The notes under the pieces: generated by a model
What the model was told of the DNA's origin: nothing
Seen by the model: the letters and a program-made list of their open reading frames with translations, nothing else
Database searches by the model: none
Program-made: the position numbers and the translations under genes
Shown here: positions 14,809 through 62,733 of the stretch, piece after piece
Position numbering within the stretch: position 1 is the first letter of the stretch
How the letters are laid out: every line of letters starts with the position of its first letter
Assembly: GCA_040285745.1 (NCBI GenBank)
Contig: JAUFOR010000005.1
Coordinates: 310,001 to 374,000, forward strand
DNA: 64,000 bases
DNA from: Barthelona sp. PCE
Taxonomy: Eukaryota
Reading direction: 5' to 3'

Positions 14809-16923
14809 ATGCCTAGGGTTCGTAAATTCGAGGACGATCTTATCATCAGGGCATATCCCGAGGGGCAGATGATATTTGAGGGCCAGGGCGTAGTATTGCT
14901 TGAATCAAGAGAAATCACCGAAATCAGCCTCATTGAAAGCGCTATTGAAGGCAAGGACTTTGTTGGATATGTGGAGGATACGGGTGAGCCTCTTAAGTAC
15001 ACATCTAAGCTGAGAGCTGGAGAATCTTACATGATCATCGAAAAGCTTCATAACAGTGGTATTATAACCCATTTTGATATCTTATTATTTAGTGATATTA
15101 TGAGCGATGAACATACAAGAAGGAGAATATTATTCCCATTGGAGGCGAACAACTTTAGGAGGCTATTCAACAGAATAATTCCGATGGATGAAAACCACTT
15201 ACTATTCATCATTAAAGAAATCGTTAATAATAGAAGAGTGTGGCAGTGCTACATATTAAATGTTATAACCGAGGAATATAAATGTCTTGGAGAGTATAGC
15301 TTTCAATCAAACATCAATTCAAACATCTATTCAAACTACATTTTTTTAAAAAAATGCCAAGATAATACCACATGGCATTACAATTTTTCTGTTGATGACA
15401 TGGACGAAGCACATGAAGTGGATATCGAGCAGTTTCATGGTGTCCCAATATACATCAGGTGTTACAACTCGGATTGCATTTGCCTAGTTAGCTTTCGCGA
15501 TCAAGAAATTGATGAACTAATAATATTTGACAGTCAAAGGAACCGCGTTAATTTAACAGAAAGGTTTCCACAGCTTAAAGGATTGTTTATTGGTAGTAAC
15601 TCAGATTTTACATTATTGACGCTTTCTCAAGATGTTTTGTCAATGATAGTTATTTATTCAAGTTTCATGGTGGTGGTTCATATCGAAAACGACGAATTGA
15701 AGATGTTAGAGGGTGAAATGAATTTTAAGAACGTAATTTGCGATTGCTGGAAGCATATAGATTTGAATGATAATACCTTTCATCATGAAGATTGTGCTTT
15801 TTATGGTGTTGATGAAATAACAGGACGTTATGGCCCAATCAAATTTAGAGAGGCTAGTAAGGAGGTGTTTCGTTTGAAAACTATTCATCCAAGAGGAATT
15901 TTTTTTGATGGAATAGCGGAAGTGTATGATGATAACGCTTTGATAAGATGTTACTTTTTTTTTAAAGAAAGGAAGCTTATTGTGCTGCGTAGGCGTAGGA
16001 AACCGTTTTCACGTACGATATGCGAGATTCTATCAGTTCATCCAAATGAAGCAGGTGATTTTATTGTAATGGCAGAGGTACGTAGTGAAATGAATACGTA
16101 TGTCAAAATTCACTGGCATGGCTCAGAATCCAAGCCTGTAATAACCATTTTGCCTCATTGTGGTTCAGAAAACTGTGGTTTTATTCTAGGGTTGCCATTA
16201 AATGTTGACTATCGTGACGATGACACAGGCTTGGTGTATTTGGGAGAAAAGATGATTATAGAGCTTCCCCCGAATATTTATGTTCGAAGTGTTCATGGTT
16301 CACATTTTGATAATTCAGCGTGCATTGTATGTATTGAAGCAACCCATTTCTTTCAGCTCAATGTCAACGGGTATGACGTGGAGGTTCAAAAGCACATTGT
16401 TTTTGAACCTGGATATACAAGTGATGTTTACTTTAACCCTCGTCCATTGAATGAAACACCTGATCACCAGCTGTTTGTTGTACACAAAGATGGTGATGAA
16501 GCAGAAATAGAACATTTACACTGTTTAGATTGGTCAACAGGAAGCTTCTTAGAGCCTGTTCTCCTTTGGAAGGGATCACATGATGATGGAACGGAGGAAG
16601 GCAACTATTTCTATAATTTCGTGGGTGATTCATACATACACGTGAAGGGTGGTATCATTAAAGCATACGTTGAAGATGGTGCTATCAAAACAAGATTTTT
16701 CACTAACAATGATTTCACTTATGTGAATATAAGCCAAAATCATAATCTGCCTAATAACACTGTTCAAGATATATCTTACAAAGAGGAGACCAAGACAATG
16801 GTGTTGAAAACATGCAATATTGAGGAAGACCAGGAATCGATGAATCCTACAGTGGAAACGTTCCACCTTCCATCGTTCTTGGCCGAGGCATCCATCGTTG
16901 AGTATCACATGCCAGATGTTTAG
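14809..16923 (+). CDS. Lineage-specific ~700-aa protein, tandem paralog 1 (beta-rich, possibly a propeller)
   Basis: 704-aa ORF colinear with 17117-19258. Confidence 0.85.
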   Translation: MPRVRKFEDDLIIRAYPEGQMIFEGQGVVLLESREITEISLIESAIEGKDFVGYVEDTGEPLKYTSKLRAGESYMIIEKLHNSGIITHFDILLFSDIMSDEHTRRRILFPLEANNFRRLFNRIIPMDENHLLFIIKEIVNNRRVWQCYILNVITEEYKCLGEYSFQSNINSNIYSNYIFLKKCQDNTTWHYNFSVDDMDEAHEVDIEQFHGVPIYIRCYNSDCICLVSFRDQEIDELIIFDSQRNRVNLTERFPQLKGLFIGSNSDFTLLTLSQDVLSMIVIYSSFMVVVHIENDELKMLEGEMNFKNVICDCWKHIDLNDNTFHHEDCAFYGVDEITGRYGPIKFREASKEVFRLKTIHPRGIFFDGIAEVYDDNALIRCYFFFKERKLIVLRRRRKPFSRTICEILSVHPNEAGDFIVMAEVRSEMNTYVKIHWHGSESKPVITILPHCGSENCGFILGLPLNVDYRDDDTGLVYLGEKMIIELPPNIYVRSVHGSHFDNSACIVCIEATHFFQLNVNGYDVEVQKHIVFEPGYTSDVYFNPRPLNETPDHQLFVVHKDGDEAEIEHLHCLDWSTGSFLEPVLLWKGSHDDGTEEGNYFYNFVGDSYIHVKGGIIKAYVEDGAIKTRFFTNNDFTYVNISQNHNLPNNTVQDISYKEETKTMVLKTCNIEEDQESMNPTVETFHLPSFLAEASIVEYHMPDV

Positions 16924-16928: not shown

Positions 16929-17116
16929 ACGTAATAAATAGCTTTCATAATATTTGAGTATTATTGTATTATACAATAATCTACCATTACACTGACCATA
17001 CTAAGCTCAATATCTTCTAAGACACAAAGTATTATTACTATTAATGCATTAATTATGCATGGAATCCATGCTATCTCCTTTTTCCTTTATTTCATCCACA
17101 ACCAACTTTCTTGTAT

Positions 17117-19258
17117 ATGCCTCGCATTCGTAAATTCGAGGATGACCTTATCATCGGGTCCTTTTCCGAGGGGCAAATCTTTTTTGAGGGTCAAGGTGTT
17201 CGAATGGTAAAAACCCGTGAAGATACCCATATCAAATATCTCATTGACACTGTTGATGGTGAAGAATTTTGTGGATATGTTGAAAAAATGTGTGAACCAA
17301 TGCAATATAATTACAAGCGAAAAGCAGGAGCAGGATTTATGTTAATACAACTACATTTTGAGGAAGGTAATCGATTAACTGAACTTGAAATCAAATATTT
17401 CAACGAAATCAACAGTGATGAATATTCAACCAGAAGGATTCGTTTCCCTTTTGATGATTTGAATAATATGGAAACATATATTTCAAGCGAATTTATTCCA
17501 TTAGATGAAAACCATATTTTTTTTACTATCACTTATGTTGATGAAGAACACCAGAATGGGCAAGCGACTTATTGTAACATTTTAAATATAATAACAGAAC
17601 AGAACAGATACATTGTTGGAGAATACGAGCTTTACTCCCTCAATACTATTTTTTCCACTGGTTTTCTGATACTAACCAGGTTCGAAGAAGATGATTTTTT
17701 GTTATTTCACTACAATTTCTGCGTTGATGATATGGACGATACCCATGAGCCAGATATCGTACAGCTAGAAGGTTTCCATAATCACATTTGTATAGGATGT
17801 TATAATGCTGAATGTGTTTGTTTTGCTGTTTTTAACGAAGGATTTGAAGAATTGATCATTTTTGACCGTCAAAGAAACCGTGTTGACTTACTAGAAAGAT
17901 TCCCACAGTTGAGAGACATAAAAACAAACTACTTTTCTAGTTTTGCCTTGTTCACATTGACACAAGATGTATTTTCTGCGCTCTTCAATGATGGCTCAGT
18001 TTGTACTGTTGTTCATATTAAGGACGGGAAGCTGAAGACATCAACTGGTGATTTGGGCATTTATGATGTTCGTTGTGCTGACGCTAAACTCATTGACTTG
18101 ATGAATTCTTTTCACGATGAAAAGTGCCAGTTTTATGGAGTTTGTTGTGCTACGGCTGTTTATGGGAATACAAAGTTTAGAAATATCAGTAACGAAGTGA
18201 TGCACTTACAAAATTTTTGGCCTCATAGCGTAATGTATGATGGGACAGCACGTTTTTCAGATTACAGTAGGAAAAGACAGTGTTACTTTTACTTCAAAGA
18301 AAAAAGGGTAGTCATACATAAAAGCGTTATGACAAAAAATAATTTAGTGAATTACTCAGAGTTATCAATGCACCCGGTTGAGGAAGATCATTTTTTTATG
18401 GTTGCACAGACTTATGGAATACAAGAGGAATCAGAAATAGTTAAAATACACTGGGAAGGTTCAGAATCAAAACCAATAATAACTCCGTATGAACATGTTG
18501 GGTTAAACTGTATTGGTTTAGTTTTTGGGTTAACATTTACTATTGAGTACAGTGAAAATATTTGTCAAGGTTATATTTGTAATACAAAAGTTTTGGAGCT
18601 TCCACCAAATGAGCACATCAATTATTGCAAGCCTTTAGTCTCTGGAAATTATGTATGTGTTAACTGTACTGGTTCAACACACTTTTTACAAATTCTGATT
18701 AATGAAAATGATGTTGAGGTCCAAAAGCACATCACTTTGCATCATAACCATGCTGTTACGAATGTAATCTACAGTCATCATTTATTAACAGAAACACCTG
18801 ATCACCAGCTCTTTGTTATGTACAGATACAATGATGATGGTGAAGAACAATGTTTGCATTGTTTGGATTGGTCAACGGGCAACTTTTTGGAACCAATTTT
18901 GTTATATAAATTTTCAAATGTTGGGGAAGGTAACTGTTTCTCAAATTTCATAGGTGATTCATACATTCGAGTAGATAAAGGTATTAATAAGGTGTCCATT
19001 GTTAATGGCGTAATTGAAATGCAATTTTTTACAAATACTTTCTTGCCAAATATCACCAACGATATGAACAACAACCTAAATCTGCCTAATAATGTTGTTC
19101 AGGAAATGAAATACGAAGAAGAAACCAAAACAATGGTGTTGAAAACGTATAACGTTGAGGAAGATCCAGAATCGATCAATCCCACAGTGGAAACGTTCCA
19201 CCTTCCATCGTTCCTGGCCGAGGCGTCCATCGTTGAGTATCACATGCCAAATGTTTAG
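17117..19258 (+). CDS. Lineage-specific ~700-aa protein, tandem paralog 2
   Basis: Shares MPRxRKFEDDLII at the N-terminus and NPTVETFHLPSFLAEASIVEYHMP at the C-terminus with paralog 1. Confidence 0.85.
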   Translation: MPRIRKFEDDLIIGSFSEGQIFFEGQGVRMVKTREDTHIKYLIDTVDGEEFCGYVEKMCEPMQYNYKRKAGAGFMLIQLHFEEGNRLTELEIKYFNEINSDEYSTRRIRFPFDDLNNMETYISSEFIPLDENHIFFTITYVDEEHQNGQATYCNILNIITEQNRYIVGEYELYSLNTIFSTGFLILTRFEEDDFLLFHYNFCVDDMDDTHEPDIVQLEGFHNHICIGCYNAECVCFAVFNEGFEELIIFDRQRNRVDLLERFPQLRDIKTNYFSSFALFTLTQDVFSALFNDGSVCTVVHIKDGKLKTSTGDLGIYDVRCADAKLIDLMNSFHDEKCQFYGVCCATAVYGNTKFRNISNEVMHLQNFWPHSVMYDGTARFSDYSRKRQCYFYFKEKRVVIHKSVMTKNNLVNYSELSMHPVEEDHFFMVAQTYGIQEESEIVKIHWEGSESKPIITPYEHVGLNCIGLVFGLTFTIEYSENICQGYICNTKVLELPPNEHINYCKPLVSGNYVCVNCTGSTHFLQILINENDVEVQKHITLHHNHAVTNVIYSHHLLTETPDHQLFVMYRYNDDGEEQCLHCLDWSTGNFLEPILLYKFSNVGEGNCFSNFIGDSYIRVDKGINKVSIVNGVIEMQFFTNTFLPNITNDMNNNLNLPNNVVQEMKYEEETKTMVLKTYNVEEDPESINPTVETFHLPSFLAEASIVEYHMPNV

Positions 19259-24221: not shown

Positions 24222-26168
24222 TTACTGAATCAGAGCTAAAGCACGGGCCTTGACGTTCTCAACTGTGAAGCCAAACTTCTCAAAGACTAACTTGGCGGGA
24301 GCAGAGGCACCATAGCTCTCCATACAGACAACATCTTGGGCGTATCTCCACCATCCCTGACCGACACCAGCCTCAACAGCGAGCACGGGGAGTTCACCGA
24401 TGACGCTCTTGATGTACTCGGCATCCTGGTCCTGGAAGAGATCAAGGCAAGGAATAGAAACAACTCGAGCATCGATTTCAGCAGCCACCTTAACGGCCAG
24501 CTCAACCTCTGAACCAGTTGCAAGGATTGTGACCTTGGCATCTTCACCTTCCTGAAGAACATAACCACCGCGCATGGCCTTTTCATATGAAGAACCATCC
24601 AATTGAGGTAAGTTTTGACGTGATCCTGCAATGACGCAAGGAGTGGCCTTTTCAGCAGTCATGGCCTTGAGAGCGTGTGCGTACATGGCAGCAGTTTCAC
24701 GACCGTCGGCAGGACGACAGAAATGAAGGTTGGGAAGAGAACGGAGTTGTGCGAACGTTTCGACAGGCTGATGGGTGGGACCGTCTTCACCGACTCCAAT
24801 TGAATCGTGAGTCATGATGTACAGAGCTGGATAATGTGAAAGAGCGGCAACACGTATGGCACCGAGAGCATATCCAGCAAAGACAAGGAAAGTGGCACCG
24901 AAAGGAAGGAAACCACCGTAAACACCCATTGCATTAACGATGGCAATCATGGCGTGCTCACGAACACCGAAACGGATCTCGCGCCCAGAAGGGTTGTTCT
25001 GCTGGAAAACACCAGCGTTAAGCTCAGTCTTGTTAGACTTTGTCAAGTCGGCAGAACCACCAACAAGACCAGGGAGCAATGGAGCCAACAACTTAAGCAT
25101 CATCTGGCTTGTGTTACGGGTTGCAATGGGCTTCTCCCCCCAGTCCATAGTTGCCAATTTCTCAAAGATGGACTCTTCAATCTGACCAGACATACGCTGT
25201 TCTAATTCAACAGCGAGTTCAGGGTATCTGTTCTTGTAGCTCAACCAGCGGGTCTCCCACTCGATGTAGGCTTGGTGCCCACGTTCTTGAGCAGCTTGAT
25301 AGCAATCGCGTGTTTCGGCGGCAACATGAAGAGTTTCAACTGGGAAGCCCCATTCAGCCTTGAGGCGATCGAGGTCGTCCTTGATGGGGGATCCGTGGAC
25401 ACCGGGTGTGTCCTGCTTCTCAGCACCAAAACCAATCGTTGTCTTAACAGCAATCAAGACAGGCTTACCGCTAACATATTGGGCCTTGCGGATAGCTTCT
25501 TCGATACCATCATGGTCGTGATCACCATCAGCAACAACAAGCACTTCCCAACCGTAGGCGGCGAAACGCTGCTGAACAAATTCTGTAAAGGAAACGTTAG
25601 TGTGACCGTCGATTGTGATGTGATTATCGTCCCAAAGAGCAACAAGGTTGTCAAGACCGAGATGACCAGCAAGTGAGCATGCTTCCGAGGCAACACCCTC
25701 CTGCATACAGCCATCACCGAGCATACAATAAACCTTGTGATCAAAGAGCTTGGTGTCATCCTTGTTGTAACGTGCAGCCATCATCTTCTGAGCAATTGCA
25801 AAACCAACGGCGTTGGAAATACCCTGACCAAGAGGTCCTGTTGTGACTTCTACACCAGGACAATGGTTCCACTCGGGGTGTCCAGCAGTGAGGGATCCCA
25901 TCTGACGGAATTGGAGCAGATCCTCACGGGTGATATAGCCCATAAGATAGAGCTGGGTGTATAGCAGAGCGGATCCATGACCGTTTGACAAAACGAAACG
26001 ATCGCGGTTCCACCACTTCTGATTGAGACGATCAATGTTCATGATCTTGCTAAAAAGTGCGTGGGTGATACCTGCAGCGCCTAAACAAACACCAGGGTGT
26101 CCAGAATTGGCAAGATTGGGTAATTCAGCAGACAAAAGTCTGACGTTGTTTACGATATCAATACTCAT
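24222..26168 (-). CDS. TKT: Transketolase
   Basis: SGHPG, DRFVLSNGHGS, TTGPLGQG, GDGCMQEG, FGVREHAM, THDSIGVGEDGPTHQP. Confidence 0.98.
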   Translation of the reverse strand: MSIDIVNNVRLLSAELPNLANSGHPGVCLGAAGITHALFSKIMNIDRLNQKWWNRDRFVLSNGHGSALLYTQLYLMGYITREDLLQFRQMGSLTAGHPEWNHCPGVEVTTGPLGQGISNAVGFAIAQKMMAARYNKDDTKLFDHKVYCMLGDGCMQEGVASEACSLAGHLGLDNLVALWDDNHITIDGHTNVSFTEFVQQRFAAYGWEVLVVADGDHDHDGIEEAIRKAQYVSGKPVLIAVKTTIGFGAEKQDTPGVHGSPIKDDLDRLKAEWGFPVETLHVAAETRDCYQAAQERGHQAYIEWETRWLSYKNRYPELAVELEQRMSGQIEESIFEKLATMDWGEKPIATRNTSQMMLKLLAPLLPGLVGGSADLTKSNKTELNAGVFQQNNPSGREIRFGVREHAMIAIVNAMGVYGGFLPFGATFLVFAGYALGAIRVAALSHYPALYIMTHDSIGVGEDGPTHQPVETFAQLRSLPNLHFCRPADGRETAAMYAHALKAMTAEKATPCVIAGSRQNLPQLDGSSYEKAMRGGYVLQEGEDAKVTILATGSEVELAVKVAAEIDARVVSIPCLDLFQDQDAEYIKSVIGELPVLAVEAGVGQGWWRYAQDVVCMESYGASAPAKLVFEKFGFTVENVKARALALIQ

Positions 26169-28087: not shown

Positions 28088-28714
28088 TTACACTAGACAT
28101 CCAATACGATTACGAAACAGAAGCATAAAAACAATAGTTCCAACCCGATTGAAGTGGTACTCGAATATGAGTGTTGAAATTTTCTTCAACATTGGTTTAT
28201 CCTTCTCAAAAAACAATACAGGTAATCGTATCAACAGCCAATATATACTATGATGCAATTGGGGAACTTTCTCGAACACAGTGAACGTTTGAAGACATGA
28301 GCAAGCTGGATATTGTAACAAAACACACATAAAAAATGCTGGAATTATTGCCATAATAAATGCAAAAAATCCCCATAATAAACTCATACTACGTTCTTTT
28401 TTCTTTCCAAATAGCCGCATCGGGTCCAGTCTGTCCAAAATACCACTGCTCAATATCGTATCTAAATCAATACGCCCTGTACTCATAATTTTCATTAGTG
28501 CATGAAACAAATTACCATCCATCTCGGGAAAAGGATCTTGTGTGAGTGAATTGTTGTTCACATTCGGGTTCCTATTAACCAAGTCTGTGTTTTCAGCATT
28601 TTGATCAACACTATCTTGTGTTTCCTCAATTGCTCGCAATTCCTTCAATCGAAGCTCCCGCTTTTGCTGCCTTTTAAGCAGCCTTTCCCTACGTTCATCA
28701 GCTGAAAGTGGCAT
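28088..28714 (-). CDS. Membrane protein, candidate Get2/CAML
   Basis: N-terminal SADERRERLLKRQQKR basic helix, disordered linker, C-terminal hydrophobic segments. Confidence 0.45.
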   Translation of the reverse strand: MPLSADERRERLLKRQQKRELRLKELRAIEETQDSVDQNAENTDLVNRNPNVNNNSLTQDPFPEMDGNLFHALMKIMSTGRIDLDTILSSGILDRLDPMRLFGKKKERSMSLLWGFFAFIMAIIPAFFMCVLLQYPACSCLQTFTVFEKVPQLHHSIYWLLIRLPVLFFEKDKPMLKKISTLIFEYHFNRVGTIVFMLLFRNRIGCLV

Positions 28715-28765
28715 TAAACGTTGTAACGATTGTTTCACTCTTTTCTTCCATTTCAAACATTTGAT

Positions 28766-30271
28766 ATGCTTAGAGCTGCTACTTCCACGACCACAACCGG
28801 GCTTTTGGTATGCATTTTGGGCTCAATCCACAACACAACTCACTCCTAGTCGTCAATCGCTCATAGTTTTCATGACGGTACAAAAACATTGCCGTACGTG
28901 ACGCACAGTCCTGAGGAGCGCCAGGAAATGTGCGACTATTTAAAAATTAAGAACACTGACGAGCTGTTTTCACAAGTTCCTTCCCAATTTATTCTTCCCG
29001 AGGGTTCGTTGACCATTGGTGCCCCCAAGAGCGAGATGGAGGTTCTCAGAGAGCTTTCGAATATGTCTAAGAAGAATCTCAGCGCTGAAGACGCTCCATT
29101 CTTTGTTGGTGGCGGACTTTATCGTCATCATATCCCCACAATGGTTGACCATATGTGCCAGCGTTCCGAGTTCCTTACCGCTTATACCCCTTACCAACCT
29201 GAAGTTTCACAAGGTACGTTACAGGGAATTTTTGAGTTCCAAAATTACGTTACCAAGATCACAGGTATGGAGGTTGCCAATGCCTCCATGTACGATGGTT
29301 CCACTGCCACAGCTGAAGCTGTCAACATGGCTGTTCGTGTCACAAAACGCAAGAAAGTTATTATGGACGGATCTATTCACCCTCATTATTCTGAGGTCGT
29401 TGACACATACGTTGATCACTCTGATCGCGCTGAGCTTGATTGCATCGATCCCAGAACTCATTTTGATATGGATAGCATCATCTCTCGTATCGACGATAAG
29501 ACCGCTGCTGTTGTTGTTCAGAATCCAACATTCTTCGGTGAAGTCGTTGACCTGACCCCCCTCGCAAAGGCATGCCATGATAAAAAGGCCTTGCTAGTGG
29601 TTGTTGTTACTGAGCCCCTTTCTCTTGGCGCTGTTAAATCTCCTGGTGAAATGGGGGCAGACATTGTTGTTGGCGACGGCGGATCACTCTCCGGTAACAT
29701 GTCCTTTGGTGGCCCCACCCTTGGCTTCTTTGCCACCCGCAACAAACAGAAGATGGTACGCGGTATGCCCGGTCGTTTAGTTGGTGAGACCGTTGATGCT
29801 GATGGCGAAAAATGTTATGTTCTCACTTTATGCGCTAGAGAACAGCACATCAGAAGACACGGTGCAACCTCTAACATTTGTACAGCTGCTGGCATTCAGG
29901 CAATGGCCTTTGGCATGCACCTCACTTGTTTAGGTGAAACCGGTTTCAAAACACTCGCTCAAGCTAACCACGCCAAGGCAATGCTTCTGCAGAAGACAGT
30001 TGATGCCTCGCTCGGCCGCGGTTCTGTGATTAACAAGACTTTCTTCAACGAGTTCACTGTTCGTTTACCTGAAGGTTATTCCGCAAAGATGTTTGTCAAC
30101 AACCTCGTTCAGCTTGGTTTCTTGGCTGGCATTCCTGTGTCTCGTTTGCTTCCTAATTCTGATGGTAGTGATCGTCTCTTACTCTTGGCTGCTACAGAAA
30201 CTAATACAGAAGAAGAAATTCGTGCTCTTGGCAATGCCATGCGTCTTGCTTTACCCTATTCCCGTTTTTAA
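28766..30271 (+). CDS. gcvPA: Glycine cleavage system P protein subunit 1 with N-terminal presequence; exons 28766-28807 and 28850-30271
   Basis: EFLTAYTPYQPEVSQGTLQ, NASMYDGSTA, MPGRLVG, REQHIRR..ATSNICT; ends at ~490 aa, so alpha subunit only. Spliced N-terminus MLRAATSTTTTGLLSSIAHSFHDG. Confidence 0.93.
28808..28849 (+). other. Spliceosomal intron (42 nt)
   Basis: GTATGC...ACTCACTCCTAG; the terminal TAG is an in-frame stop if unspliced, and the downstream ORF starts at TTG. Confidence 0.85.
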
Positions 30272-30336: not shown

Positions 30337-33300
30337 TTAGACTGTTGATAATTCCTCCAAATATTCATTAAGAGGATTCAAAATTTCTTCCCCTTTTTCT
30401 CTTCGTTGAGCAACTAACACAACCATACTTGTGGGGATTACTACGCAAAAGGCAATCAGAGTTGATGAAAAAGTATTAAATATATCATAAAAGAAAGAAA
30501 GTAAAACTAAACAAATGAGAATCTTTAACATAAGTGAATTAATAATGTTAAAAGGCTTGGCGAACACTATGTATGTGAGCAGGGCTAAAAGAAATACTTG
30601 ATTAGGAAGTTGACTGTGAGCAATATAAGAAAAGAGAGTGTAAATCGCTCGAGCAACCAAGCAGTAGAAAAAAATCATTCTAAAATCATGTAAACTATAA
30701 CCAACCTCCTTCTTTGTTTGCACGAAACAAAATACATAGAAACATAGATGAATGAATAGAATTACGATTAGATACCAATTATAATGAGTTTCAAATGCAC
30801 TCAATGTGTGCCAATACCCTTCCAGCTTGCCATATTTATCTTCGGTGTACACCGGAAGGGTGCGCAAGAACGCCAACTTGGTGATATAAGGAAGGAATAA
30901 CAAATTAAGAGATAAAAGTGAGCTAATAGAGATCTGGATTTTCCGTTCTGTGGTAAACAACAGAATCAGTGCTGGGAGCGCATAGAGGACCAGTGATGTA
31001 AATACATTTTCATAATCCTTGAACTTATATTCATGAACAGAACCTAAAACGAGAGAAAGAGCAGATAATGCAAACAATATTTTTTTTAGAATCCTACTCT
31101 TCAAGGACAATAAAATGACTGTAACTGTGACAGCGATGCCCGGGATGCCGAAATACCACAAACTAAGAAAAGATAACCAACAAGCATAACAAGAGCAAAA
31201 GAACCAATACGATATTCTGGGGAAGAACAGTAAGAAAATTACACAAACATAAATCACATGTATGTAAGGCAGTTCGTTCCTTACCAAAATAGCAAAATTC
31301 GCAAATGGACTAAAAAGTGCAGAAACAAAAAAAGATCCTGCACTCTTCTCAATAAAGAGAGCTGTACCATTTGTTTCGCTAATGACCAGAGGCCAGAGCA
31401 CCAGAATGAAGTTCTTGATGTTGGACAGAAGCTCAAAAGCTTCAAAATCTGTCATTCTTGAAGAACTGTCCAATAATTTGGACCATGGAATCCTATTAAG
31501 TAGGTAGTACTTTTTAGCAACAACAAACATCATGAGACAATGCACTGCGAACACCAAAGTCGAGATGCGCACAAAACGGTATTTGACCAACCCGCACTGA
31601 TGCGATAACTGGTTGAAACCAATAATTTGCTCATTATCGTATTTTGCAACAGAATAACACTCAGTACACGCCTTACCGTGATGGCCTATGGCGCACCCGT
31701 TGTTATCCAATGTCTTGTTGTTCGATAAAAATAGCTGGGTCTCTCGATAGTCAAGAGTCTCATAGGATTTACCGCTCATACCTGGGTATACCTGCCCACC
31801 GACGCAAAATGCATTCATGCAGTCGATGAGTGTCGTCGTTCCGTTGTACTCGTACACATAATTGCCCGCTGGTATCTTATACATGGAACTGGTTATCGCG
31901 TCTCTTTCTAAATACGTCAGATCTCTGTGGTTATCATCTAACTCACACAGCGGATAACCTGCATCGCCTATAACCTGCCTATATCCTGCTGTACATGACT
32001 GACACCTTTTTTTATCAAAATCCCAGCCAAATCCTTTTGTGCAAGAAAACGAGCCCGGACTTTCGTTCATAATCAATAGATGGCTTTCTCTCAGCTCATA
32101 TATGTATATACGTATGCCTTTTATATCATCTGCTTCAAATGGAAGTTTGGTAATATCAGAAAATTTTTCAATCGAAAAAGAAAAAAATGGTTGGGTATTA
32201 ATCAATAAGAAATTTCTAAATCCATGATGAAAAACATTAGCACCAAGCAATAGGGCTAAATCTTGAGTATCAATGGAGTTGATCCCTATTGGGAATAGAA
32301 AGAAATCTTTTGTTCTATCTTGGGATTGCATCCACACAACTCTACTCATATCTTTTGTATACACCATATTCATACTAAGTTCGATATAATGTCCATATAT
32401 TAAGAAGCTCTTATATAACTCAACTGCTTCGTTCACAAATGCATCATTTGTATCAAATACTAGATTATTTGCTTTAAAGTACAACATCGATCCTTGAGAA
32501 AGATGAATAACAAAAAAGGAATTTGAAGGAATGTAAAATTCTGATTCAGTGACATTTAAATAACTGGATTCATGATTATTTATCACAAAAACTGTACTAA
32601 AATCATCCAACTCCAAATAACTTTTAGTCATAAAGAAATTTCTAACACTGAATGTCTGAACAAAGAACGGAAGCGTTGAAGAGATTACCTGTACATCATT
32701 GAATGTAACTGAATTATTGCTATTATGCAAATTACCAATAAACTGAAAACCACCTCCAGCAATCAATCTTTCAAAGTAAATAGTGTTAAATGAAAAGTAT
32801 GATGATATCAAATCGGGTATAACAAAAGCAACCTCTGTAATTTGTGAATTGCTGATTCGAAGACCGTTGATTGTAAAATTTCGAACTCCCATATTCAAAT
32901 TTGATGATAAATAGATGCTCCATATCGAACTGGAATGTATAGTTATGTTTGAAAGTAATACTGCAGAATCGTTTTCTAGAAGGCCAACATTGAACAATGC
33001 ATAATTAAGTGATTTCAGATTAATTATGTACAGATTTTCATAATGTACTGATTGTTTGAATAATAGCAAAGCAGTACTAGAAAAATCTTCTAATGTTTCC
33101 GCTGAAACATCTATAAAACTAACACTGTTCATATATCTTACATTAATAGATCTATCAACCGTAATATTTCGCAATATTGTATTATTCATATTTTCATAAA
33201 CAGTAAATGGTAAATTTCCATCAGCAAAAGTAACATTATTCAAGTAAAGTAAAGTAGGTTCAGCCATAGCTAAAAAATGGTAACTAGGCTTATCGATTCT

Positions 33301-34383
33301 CTCCATATAACCATTTGTCAAATGGAGACTATCAAACCCAGGGAAAAGGACATCACAATCAATATTAAACGCATACCCATATATAATAACGTTATCAACA
33401 TATGCAGAAATAACCTTTGCTCTTTCCCAAACCCAAAAAATAAATGTATCATAGTAAGTTGTATTAGACATATGAAATTCATCAATAAGAACATCAGACA
33501 TCATCAGACTATGTAAATTACTGCTCATACTGTCTAATACAAACATTCTAAATTGCAGTGAGTGTAAAATAACACTGTTGAAATCACCATTAAACAAATA
33601 GAGTTCTTGATCAAGTCTGTGGTATTCTCCAGTATACTTAAACTCGTTACAGTTTGTGTTCTGGATCTTTGTCGCAGCACCAGTGCCATCCATTGAAATG
33701 CTAAGCTTATTGAACTGACTCTTCAAGATACTCAATTCAATCTTTGAAGAACGTTTACCAATTTCATAAGCTGAAACGTCCATAGAAATGTCATCACCAG
33801 TTACATTTCTTAACATTATACTGCTCATTGCATTAAAAAATATTGAGCTATGAATGTTTTCAACAAAGATATCATTAAAAAGAATTATAGAACCTGTAAC
33901 AGATAATCCTTTCCGAATACTTACATCTGTGAAAGTAATTAATTCGCCTTCAATATTCAAAGAATCCACAGCACATGAATTAATATGAATTGTGTTTTGG
34001 ATCGCATGAAAACTAATGCCCATTTCGATAGTTGATTTCACAATGAATACGTTATTAAATATATTGAAATACATTTCACGCACTTCTGGGAACATGGTTA
34101 TCTTGATACTCGAACTGGAAATATTAAAAGAGCTCAAATTAACTTCATTCTGATTTAAAGCTGTTGGAAAGGTAAATTGGAAGTTTGCTGAACAGTTTTT
34201 AAAGACAAAACCCGTCCCATCGCCCAAACCATGTGGAATATTTAGGATTACAATATCGCTTTCAAAGATATTCTCAAAAACATTTGTTTCATCATTTAAA
34301 ACATCTATGACTACTTTCCCATGTGCGCTAACCAAGACACATACTGTGATGAGTAAAATATAAACCCCTTTGAGCATTAGCAA
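30337..34383 (-). CDS. Large surface/membrane protein: signal peptide, beta-helix-like N-rich region, Cys-rich segment, multipass TM C-terminus
   Basis: 1348-aa ORF; CTKGFG..CQSCTAG and GCAIGHHGKACTEC motifs; many hydrophobic helices at the C-terminus. Confidence 0.75.
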   Translation of the reverse strand: MLMLKGVYILLITVCVLVSAHGKVVIDVLNDETNVFENIFESDIVILNIPHGLGDGTGFVFKNCSANFQFTFPTALNQNEVNLSSFNISSSSIKITMFPEVREMYFNIFNNVFIVKSTIEMGISFHAIQNTIHINSCAVDSLNIEGELITFTDVSIRKGLSVTGSIILFNDIFVENIHSSIFFNAMSSIMLRNVTGDDISMDVSAYEIGKRSSKIELSILKSQFNKLSISMDGTGAATKIQNTNCNEFKYTGEYHRLDQELYLFNGDFNSVILHSLQFRMFVLDSMSSNLHSLMMSDVLIDEFHMSNTTYYDTFIFWVWERAKVISAYVDNVIIYGYAFNIDCDVLFPGFDSLHLTNGYMERIDKPSYHFLAMAEPTLLYLNNVTFADGNLPFTVYENMNNTILRNITVDRSINVRYMNSVSFIDVSAETLEDFSSTALLLFKQSVHYENLYIINLKSLNYALFNVGLLENDSAVLLSNITIHSSSIWSIYLSSNLNMGVRNFTINGLRISNSQITEVAFVIPDLISSYFSFNTIYFERLIAGGGFQFIGNLHNSNNSVTFNDVQVISSTLPFFVQTFSVRNFFMTKSYLELDDFSTVFVINNHESSYLNVTESEFYIPSNSFFVIHLSQGSMLYFKANNLVFDTNDAFVNEAVELYKSFLIYGHYIELSMNMVYTKDMSRVVWMQSQDRTKDFFLFPIGINSIDTQDLALLLGANVFHHGFRNFLLINTQPFFSFSIEKFSDITKLPFEADDIKGIRIYIYELRESHLLIMNESPGSFSCTKGFGWDFDKKRCQSCTAGYRQVIGDAGYPLCELDDNHRDLTYLERDAITSSMYKIPAGNYVYEYNGTTTLIDCMNAFCVGGQVYPGMSGKSYETLDYRETQLFLSNNKTLDNNGCAIGHHGKACTECYSVAKYDNEQIIGFNQLSHQCGLVKYRFVRISTLVFAVHCLMMFVVAKKYYLLNRIPWSKLLDSSSRMTDFEAFELLSNIKNFILVLWPLVISETNGTALFIEKSAGSFFVSALFSPFANFAILVRNELPYIHVIYVCVIFLLFFPRISYWFFCSCYACWLSFLSLWYFGIPGIAVTVTVILLSLKSRILKKILFALSALSLVLGSVHEYKFKDYENVFTSLVLYALPALILLFTTERKIQISISSLLSLNLLFLPYITKLAFLRTLPVYTEDKYGKLEGYWHTLSAFETHYNWYLIVILFIHLCFYVFCFVQTKKEVGYSLHDFRMIFFYCLVARAIYTLFSYIAHSQLPNQVFLLALLTYIVFAKPFNIINSLMLKILICLVLLSFFYDIFNTFSSTLIAFCVVIPTSMVVLVAQRREKGEEILNPLNEYLEELSTV

Positions 34384-47451: not shown

Positions 47452-48102
47452 ATGTCAAACCCCATAATCATTGCCCCTTCGATTCTTTCATCGGATTTTG
47501 GTCACCTTGCACGTGATTGCAGTTTCATTCTCAGTGAAGGCGCTGATTGGCTTCATGTCGACATCATGGATGGCCACTTTGTCCCCAACATCACCATAGG
47601 ACCACCTGTAGTCAAAGCTCTTCGTAAGAATCTTCCCGATGCTTTCCTTGATTGCCATATCATGGTTTCCAAGCCAAGCCAGTGGATTGAACCACTCGCC
47701 AAGGGTGGAGCCAACCTCATCTGCTTCCACGTTGAGGTAGAAGAAGATATTGATACAGTCATTGCTCAAATTCGGGAATATGATAATATTGAGGTCGGCC
47801 TTGCCATCAGACCTTCCACGGACCCAGAGATGATCCTTCCCTACATTGATAAGATTGATATGGTACTTGCCATGACCGTTGAGCCAGGTTTCGGCGGACA
47901 AAAGTTCAATCCTGTCGGGCTTAACGCTGCAAAGCTCGCTAGAGAGCGCAGACCCGACATTAAGATTCAGGTTGATGGTGGTGTATCTGTGAAAACTGTT
48001 AAAGAGTGCAAGGACGCAGGTTGTAACGTACTCGTAAGTGGAAGTGCAATTTTTGGTTCGGAAGATAAAAGACACTACATGGATCAGCTCCGCAGCTTAT
48101 AA
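47452..48102 (+). CDS. RPE: Ribulose-phosphate 3-epimerase
   Basis: IAPSILSSDF, HVDIMDGHFVPNITIG, MTVEPGFGGQKF, IQVDGG. Confidence 0.98.
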   Translation: MSNPIIIAPSILSSDFGHLARDCSFILSEGADWLHVDIMDGHFVPNITIGPPVVKALRKNLPDAFLDCHIMVSKPSQWIEPLAKGGANLICFHVEVEEDIDTVIAQIREYDNIEVGLAIRPSTDPEMILPYIDKIDMVLAMTVEPGFGGQKFNPVGLNAAKLARERRPDIKIQVDGGVSVKTVKECKDAGCNVLVSGSAIFGSEDKRHYMDQLRSL

Positions 48103-51575: not shown

Positions 51576-52047
51576 ATGCCCAAGTTGTTTACGCCTGGTA
51601 AGATCTGCATTGTCACTGCTGGTCGTTATGCTGGTAAGAAATGCGTCGTTGTTGAGTGTATGGATTTCTAACTCGCATTGCTTTGCGTTGTTTACCTAGT
51701 TATTCTCATATTTAGCCCACGAGTCCACCAAGGATCGCACTTACGGTCACGTTCTCGTCGCTGGTATCGATCGTGCTCCTCTCGCTGTCACCAAGCGTAT
51801 GAGCAACGAAAAGGTCGATAGACGTTCTAGAGTCAAGCCTTTCCTTAAGGTCATGAACGCCACACACGTTATGGCCACTCGTTACACTCTTGACGGTTTC
51901 CGCATGAAGGAGCTCGTTCTCCCCAAGAACCCTTGCACCGATGTTAAGGCTAGCCGTTCTTCCGCTCTCCAGCAGATCAAGAACAAGTTCCAGAACATCT
52001 ACAAGGATGGCAAGAACAAGTGGTTCTTCAACAAGCTTCGCTTCTAA
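51576..52047 (+). CDS. RPL27: 60S ribosomal protein L27 (eL27); exons 51576-51657 and 51716-52047
   Basis: Spliced: MPKLFTPGKICIVTAGRYAGKKCVVVESHESTKDRTYGHVLVAGIDR...KPFLKVMNATHVMATRY...GKNKWFFNKLRF. Confidence 0.97.
51658..51715 (+). other. Spliceosomal intron (58 nt)
   Basis: GTATGG...TCTCATATTTAG; removal restores the conserved eL27 frame. Confidence 0.92.
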
Positions 52048-62064: not shown

Positions 62065-62733
62065 ATGCATCTCTCAGCCTTTTTATTGCTTTCACTCTTC
62101 ATTGTAGTCCATACCTGTGAAAATCTTGGTGCCCAAAACACCACCACAAATATAAATGGCGATTCTGAATGTATTTCTGTGCGCTCTGGGCTTAATAAGA
62201 ATTCAATGTATGTGTTTAACTTCCAAGAGCCCAACACAACCCACTCAGTTATCGTTGAAATGACCCAATTTGTTCTTCACAAAAGGAAAAACGTTTATGT
62301 TTTTGATGGTGATGAATGTGGCACCGACAGCGACTATTTGAAATGGGACTCTTCCAACCGCCTTTGTGGTGATGTTGGATCTTTTAATATCCTGATAACT
62401 AACAATTTTTCAACACTAAAGTACTATACCTCAAACTACGCAACTTCCTCCTTTACAATGTCATTTGAAACAGTTGAAAACACGGCAGTAACTCAGTGTA
62501 CAACTGGAAAAGGTGTGTGCTATAATGATGAGCGTGTGTATGAACACAGTGAGTTTAATGCATTCATTGCTGAAATTACTGTTCATTCTTGGGGATTCAT
62601 TCTTGCCGTAATCGGTGTTACTTTCTTCTTTATTGCACTACTTGGTGTCATGGTTTGGTGGTATGCCGGTAAAAAGAAGACAAACAGAACTATTGTTCCA
62701 AGTGATAGCAGATACAATAACAACAAAGTTTAA
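62065..62733 (+). CDS. Type I membrane protein with CUB-like ectodomain
   Basis: Signal peptide, VYVFDG..C...RLCG...F.MSF CUB-like pattern, C-terminal TM helix; alternative ATG at 62017. Confidence 0.65.
   Translation: MHLSAFLLLSLFIVVHTCENLGAQNTTTNINGDSECISVRSGLNKNSMYVFNFQEPNTTHSVIVEMTQFVLHKRKNVYVFDGDECGTDSDYLKWDSSNRLCGDVGSFNILITNNFSTLKYYTSNYATSSFTMSFETVENTAVTQCTTGKGVCYNDERVYEHSEFNAFIAEITVHSWGFILAVIGVTFFFIALLGVMVWWYAGKKKTNRTIVPSDSRYNNNKV

Follow-up and report, generated by a model that had tools for sequence, protein, structure and literature searches.

Which protein does the reading frame that ends at position 30271 of this stretch encode, where does that protein begin, and in which compartment would it act? 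The stretch analysed here, hereafter the window, comprises 64,000 nt of Barthelona sp. PCE DNA (contig JAUFOR010000005.1, positions 310,001 to 374,000). An earlier note on it had described a split, prokaryote-type P1 subunit of the glycine cleavage system, preceded by a hidden exon that would encode an organelle-targeting presequence. We consider it quite probable that the locus is a nuclear gene with an intron, belonging to a barthelonid metamonad, and that it encodes an alphaproteobacterial-type P1 as a spliced 487-aa precursor, the leader of which, we infer, directs the protein to an organelle.

The encoded protein and its gene model

The exon-2 translation matched the Pfam family GDC-P (2.8e-110, 369.6 bits) and scored 535.7 bits against the NCBIfam GcvPA equivalog NF001696 (cut-off, 364), covering profile positions 3-443 of 447, while the fused gcvP model gave 239.8 bits against a cut-off of 859.2. 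The closest solved chain was P-protein subunit 1 of Thermus thermophilus (PDB 1wyt_A, residues 15-466, 1.4e-95). In the alignment, Leu28 of the window protein falls on Met1 of alphaproteobacterial GcvPA and the C-termini coincide, an end-to-end correspondence that indicates a stand-alone P1 rather than part of a fused P protein. On these matches, the product is a full-length GcvPA (P1, the alpha subunit of the two-subunit glycine dehydrogenase [decarboxylating]).

When ORFs are called in prokaryote style, this gene comes out truncated, without its leader. The table-11 ORF listing starts it at TTG 28889 (460 aa), as the earlier note had remarked of the frame it tracked, and the first in-frame ATG, at 28928, gives 447 aa. 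That ATG lies 13 codons inside the conserved N-terminus as aligned with the homologues. The 13 residues that precede it, LPYVTHSPEERQE, align with the conserved N-terminus of every homologue, and coding sequence upstream of ATG 28928 must therefore be translated. Read without splicing from ATG 28766, the frame runs MLRAATSTTTTGLLVCILGSIHNTTHS* and hits the intron's own TAG, which explains why the ORF is closed upstream by an in-frame stop. In the spliced model, a 14-codon exon starting at ATG 28766 is joined across a 42-nt intron to the plus-strand frame 28850-30271, yielding 487 aa (Table 1). The N-terminus of the spliced protein then reads MLRAATSTTTTGLLSSIAHSFHDGTKT-LPYVTHS, and TTG 28889 encodes an internal leucine, not a start. 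Given the putative start of the divergent upstream gene, the promoter and 5′ UTR of the GcvPA gene must lie within the 51-nt spacer or next to it.

Table 1. Features of the GcvPA locus and of the introns compared with it (window coordinates)
Feature	Position	Strand	Description
Divergent spacer	28715..28765		51 nt, from the first ATG of the upstream ORF (minus strand, 28714-28712) to the GcvPA ATG
Exon 1	28766..28807	+	ATG (28766-28768) plus 13 codons, MLRAATSTTTTGLL; first half of the leader
Intron	28808..28849	+	42 nt, phase 0, GTATGC...CTCACTCCTAG; terminal TAG at 28847-28849
Predicted branch-point/acceptor motif	28839..28849	+	CTCAC-TCC-TAG, with fixed spacing to the 3′ splice site
Exon-2 part of the leader	28850..28888	+	SSIAHSFHDGTKT; upstream of the residue aligning with bacterial Met1
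Conserved GcvPA core	28889..30268	+	460 codons, Leu28 to Phe487
Rival start	28928..28930	+	First in-frame ATG of the ORF; would cost 13 conserved N-terminal residues
Stop codon	30269..30271	+	TAA; protein ends where bacterial GcvPA ends, no fused P2 half
TPH-domain gene	13429-11873	-	Putative mini first exon, ATG 13429; 51-nt intron 13389-13339
PCI/Rpn-like (PCI-domain) gene	58437-57121	-	Putative mini first exon, ATG 58437; 42-nt intron 58367-58326
Branch/acceptor elements of the four introns	28839-28849 (+), 51705-51715 (+), 13349-13339 (-), 58336-58326 (-)		Fixed distance

What is apparently the same gene is already in print. Supplementary Data 1 of PMC11316075 lists for Barthelona sp. PCE the gene model g3359, with 487 aa and an FPKM of 102. 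Compared by eye, its protein is the same as the spliced window protein over 400 of the 487 residues, and the total length is equal; it lacks the 14 intron codons and has the same N-terminus as exon 1. The corresponding nucleotide entry (2154 nt) starts at window position 28161, and 28300-28560 match by eye. This start lies inside the divergent upstream gene, possibly reflecting merged overlapping transcripts. The Barthelona sp. PCE models in that source are RNA-seq-guided GeneMark-ET/AUGUSTUS predictions with PASA validation, made on a genome of 10.2 Mb in 8 contigs with 40.3% GC (PMC11316075), and the composition of the window is similar. For this gene, then, the spliced model, its expression, a presequence prediction, and the partner genes were already known from PMC11316075. 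The present analysis adds independent, sequence-only support for the splicing, a donor and a fixed-spacing acceptor shared by four 5′ introns, and a tree.

Several claims of the earlier note can be settled at this point. The positions it had given for the ATG exon, the 42-nt GTATGC..TAG intron, and exon 2 all hold when read from the sequence, and its split, prokaryote-type P1 is borne out by the NF001696 score of a stand-alone protein with its TAA at the bacterial C-terminus. The exon that it called hidden is indeed missed, together with the leader, by ORF-only calling, but the published RNA-seq-guided annotation already has it (PMC11316075). The separate gcvPB that it had postulated corresponds to a listed P2 gene, g4932, which appears in the same source along with those for the H (g4209), L (g1776), and T (g2559) proteins (PMC11316075).

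For P2, the listed FPKM is 0, and the L protein in that list lacks an extension, its FAD-binding motif standing at the very start (PMC11316075). Neither is what one would expect of a functioning organellar glycine cleavage system, and both may be artefacts of annotation or mapping.

In the mechanism that we propose, transcription would begin within the 51-nt divergent spacer or near it. Spliceosomal removal of 28808-28849, marked by the GTATG donor and the CTCAC-N3-TAG branch/acceptor motif, would then join the 14-codon ATG exon to the main exon to give the 487-aa precursor. The first 27 residues would most likely be an N-terminal presequence by which P1 enters the mitochondrion-related organelle. 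Inside, the partner of P1 would be P2, the PLP-binding subunit encoded by a separate gene, and the P1/P2 enzyme would take part in glycine cleavage and one-carbon metabolism together with the H, T, and L proteins.

The leader and import into a mitochondrion-related organelle

The leader that precedes the bacterial Met1 position is 27 residues long and contains 11 Ser/Thr, two His, one Arg, and one Lys; its net charge is about +1, and its first acidic residue is residue 23. This agrees with the earlier description of a Ser/Thr-rich leader that has no acidic residue in its first 22 positions. In the alignment, extensions before the conserved (L/I/M)PY motif are present in the window protein and in two relatives, the P1 of Barthelona sp. 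PAP020 (P0001) and a GcvPA assembled from Logan contigs (P0032). The P1 of Skoliomonas sp. GEMRC is also N-terminally extended (PMC11316075).

Published predictions for g3359 comprise a MitoFates call of 'possessing mitochondrial presequence' (0.564), a TargetP value of 45 (targeting peptide 'MLRAATSTTTTG'), and a MitoProt value of 36 (PMC11316075). This amounts to a positive result in one of three predictors, which falls under the authors' two-tool criterion. In Barthelona sp. PCE, that level was reached only by a hydrogenase, GCST, and IscU, and the T protein g2559 was positive in all three predictors (PMC11316075).

It is unlikely, in our estimate, that the gene is spliced as modelled and that the 27-aa extension is nevertheless no targeting signal, P1 being cytosolic or imported via internal signals. 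Glycine cleavage is exclusively mitochondrial in eukaryotes according to PMC11316075, and the T protein of the same system has a strong predicted MTS. The recurrence of extensions in the window protein, P0001, P0032, and the Skoliomonas sp. GEMRC P1 likewise argues for a function in targeting, as does the P1 of Trimastix, which has an unrecognised extension and is imported into yeast mitochondria (PMC3596361). What speaks for a leader without targeting function, besides the single positive predictor, its one Arg and one Lys, and the L protein without an extension, is the very reduced import machinery of barthelonids. PMC11316075 reports no MPP/PreP homologue in these organisms and, for Barthelona sp. 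PCE, only Tom70, Tim17, Pam18, and mtHsp70 as detected import parts. The authors also stress that MTS prediction in metamonads is unreliable (PMC11316075), a point that fits the same explanation.

Import of P1 into a mitochondrion-related organelle is the best-supported reading, and one that we can reasonably infer, weakly predicted as it is. The authors of PMC11316075 take barthelonid organelles to be hydrogen-producing mitochondrion-related organelles, a view that the 'hydrogenosome-like' wording of the earlier note matches. Overall, the exon, the intron, the leader, and the split P1 as read in that note are supported and its observation is confirmed, with import to be put as a probable destination of the protein. 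The locus raises the question of whether leaders this weak can drive import where the translocon is minimal and no processing peptidase is detected.

Splice signals of the 5′ intron

GT..AG models that link an upstream ATG exon to the conserved N-terminus, with introns of 20-200 nt and within 400 nt, numbered exactly one, with the intron at 28808-28849. How much such a bridge means was gauged on the long frames of the window: of 46 stop-to-stop frames of at least 150 codons, 34 were kept, and the 12 that overlapped longer frames or ran off the window were dropped. A bare GT..AG bridge was present in 26 of the 34 real upstream regions and in 1062 of 1700 shuffled ones, and, being so common in shuffles, carries no weight as evidence. 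Bridges whose donor is GTATG occurred in 284 of 10,200 shuffles (2.8%) and in three of the 34 ORFs, i.e., GcvPA, a TPH-domain gene, and a PCI-domain gene (Table 1). GTATG taken alone was rejected as evidence, its 52 and 62 sites comparing with 63.7 expected per strand and showing no enrichment.

A fourth intron could be verified by homology. The RPL27 gene (51576-52047, plus strand) carries a 58-nt phase-1 intron (51658-51715, GTATGG...CTCATATTTAG) after a 27-codon first exon; exon 1 encodes the KOW motif (8.5e-7) and exon 2 the Ribosomal_L27e domain (1.3e-27). Each of the four 5′ introns (GcvPA, RPL27, TPH-domain, and PCI-domain) measures 42-58 nt, opens with GTATG, closes with CT[CA]A[CT]-NNN-TAG, and interrupts its gene within the first 27 codons. 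The composite of donor and acceptor had four matches on the two strands of the window, solely at these four introns. First-order resamples gave a mean of 0.42, and none of 300 reached four, the pattern having been defined post hoc, after the four introns had been seen, so that this result is supportive and not independent.

Two further intron-like GTATG...AG segments occur in the window, at 42175-42106 on the minus strand, with CAGCTAAC and a pyrimidine tract, and at 62208-62248 on the plus strand. Both candidates were set aside for their misfit to the fixed-spacing acceptor motif.

TTG initiation is unusual in eukaryotic nuclear genes. This bears on the possibility, very unlikely in our view, that there is no splicing and that translation starts at ATG 28928 (447 aa) or TTG 28889 (460 aa) to give a leaderless protein. 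These are the starts that the ORF listing alone yields, and of the two, the ATG would remove 13 residues whose counterparts are conserved at the N-terminus of all homologues. The upstream segment, moreover, bears the donor and acceptor signature of this genome, and the published RNA-seq-guided model is spliced (PMC11316075). Highly improbable is a readthrough or reassignment of TAG 28847, with translation of the unspliced frame from ATG 28766 and a gain of 14 residues (with VCILGSIHNTTHS). An intron that is in frame and a multiple of three in length would permit this, but the 34 long ORFs of the window end in TAA (23), TAG (10), or TGA (1), so that TAG is a stop here and a sense reading is excluded, and the published protein is without the 14 intron codons (PMC11316075).

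We regard the predicted GcvPA intron and the split P1 as solid, the splicing being indicated by the sequence signals together with the published gene model. More generally, very short 5′ exons of a compact protist genome with few introns can be recovered from sequence signals alone.

Genomic setting, relatives, and comparison with known systems

The window is eukaryotic and compact. Domains detected in the 35 window ORFs scanned include enkurin, TPH, Tsr1, TFIIS, DEAH helicase, kinase, and PI3/4-kinase, and RPL27 is also encoded in the window. No other glycine-cleavage protein, GcvPB included, was found among these 35 ORFs, and the ORF downstream of GcvPA is convergent and unrelated. In one alphaproteobacterial locus (L004), gcvPB lies directly 3′ of gcvPA; in another (L036), gcvH precedes gcvPA, and the downstream frame, when scanned, gave no match.

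Some other frames of the window are also of note. The convergent ORF at 30337-34383 (minus strand; 1348 aa) has no Pfam match, and about 65 nt separate its stop from that of GcvPA; its N-terminus begins hydrophobic, its middle is rich in Cys, and a long C-terminal portion is again hydrophobic. Two adjacent plus-strand ORFs, 14809-16923 (704 aa) and 17111-19258 (715 aa), are likewise without a Pfam match and contain similar stretches (16635 and 18964, minus strand), which suggests that they may be tandem paralogues. A transketolase (24222-26168, minus strand) and a ribulose-phosphate 3-epimerase (47452-48102, plus strand) belong to the non-oxidative pentose phosphate pathway and have no evident N-terminal extension.

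The best match among 8000 scored candidates was the transcript-derived P1 of Barthelona sp. PAP020 (P0001, EukProt EP00792; 488 aa), with 59-60% identity. The other named matches among the 120 listed were alphaproteobacterial GcvPA or JGI 'glycine dehydrogenase subunit 1' entries, the closest alphaproteobacterial ones with 53-57% identity. Exact look-up of the 447-, 460-, and 473-aa translations in the protein collection gave no match, and the window's own GcvPA was absent among the 120 listed matches, though the window's Tsr1 is present in the collection (P0121). P0032 is a GcvPA of 466 aa that derives from short Logan contigs, the longest measuring 1871 nt. Its N-terminus bears a short extension of the MLS type, and the sequence probably represents the P1 of another protist.

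A GcvPA phylogeny, which the earlier note had named as a check, was run as a quick maximum-likelihood analysis with 72 rows (the window, P0001, P0032, and 69 of 80 loci, the other 11 having been dropped for a stop or X in the translated match). It is a short-search tree of loci picked by similarity to the query, with fused eukaryotic P proteins left out. The window protein is sister to P0001 (SH-aLRT 98), with P0032 next (98), and all three fall within the alphaproteobacterial side of a branch with a support of 100. This placement among alphaproteobacterial GcvPA agrees with the affinity of Trimastix, both P subunits of which are robustly related to alphaproteobacteria (PMC2148110).

We see next to no likelihood of bacterial contamination or an unexpressed recent transfer, to which the 53-57% identity of the closest named alphaproteobacterial relatives and the nesting of the gene among alphaproteobacterial GcvPA would be congenial, given that the gene is flanked by eukaryotic genes on one contig of the same composition, has a spliceosomal intron and no bacterial start, lies next to neither gcvH nor gcvPB, unlike L004 and L036, is sister to another barthelonid transcript, and has a published FPKM of 102 (PMC11316075).

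The preferred reading of a nuclear barthelonid gene with alphaproteobacterial affinity raises the question of whether the split P enzyme of this type in metamonads is ancestral or was acquired laterally. In a stronger proposal, the split P1/P2 enzyme would descend vertically from the alphaproteobacterial endosymbiont and have been retained in metamonads, not acquired later by lateral transfer, and the leader would be a functional, uncleaved, MPP-independent import signal in a lineage that no longer has the processing peptidase or most TOM/TIM subunits. We regard this combination as doubtful; if the part on vertical descent were true, the fused P protein of other eukaryotes would be of separate or later origin.

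Compared with known systems, the introns described here resemble those of Trichomonas vaginalis (ACTAACACACAG), Spironucleus salmonicida (ACTAACAAACTAG), and Giardia in their GT..AG borders, GTATG donor, CTNAY element near the AG, and 5′-proximal position. Fused branch/acceptor motifs are known in Trichomonas, Giardia, and Spironucleus (PMC3916229); the element in Barthelona differs in taking the form CT[CA]A[CT]-N3-TAG, as derived from four examples.

Among the P1 proteins, that of Barthelona sp. PAP020 shares with the window protein an N-terminal extension ending in T-LPYV-HS as well as small insertions relative to bacteria. Its leader, in contrast, is mostly different in sequence and three residues longer (30 versus 27 before the shared Leu), and the protein is known from a transcript. 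Paratrimastix (Trimastix) pyriformis likewise has a split, alphaproteobacteria-related P1/P2 with a P1 extension that predictors missed, and is likened here by its published description; it belongs to a different metamonad lineage, Preaxostyla. Alphaproteobacterial GcvPA proteins, such as those of Kordiimonas marina (P0013) and Inquilinus limosus (L036), are of the same length class and align end to end at 53-57% identity, but they have neither leader nor intron and carry Met where the window protein has Leu28. The fused human mitochondrial GLDC (PDB 6i33_A, 984 aa), finally, in which P forms one chain as is canonical in eukaryotes, matches in its N-terminal half only (1.7e-56), the window protein ending after the alpha half.
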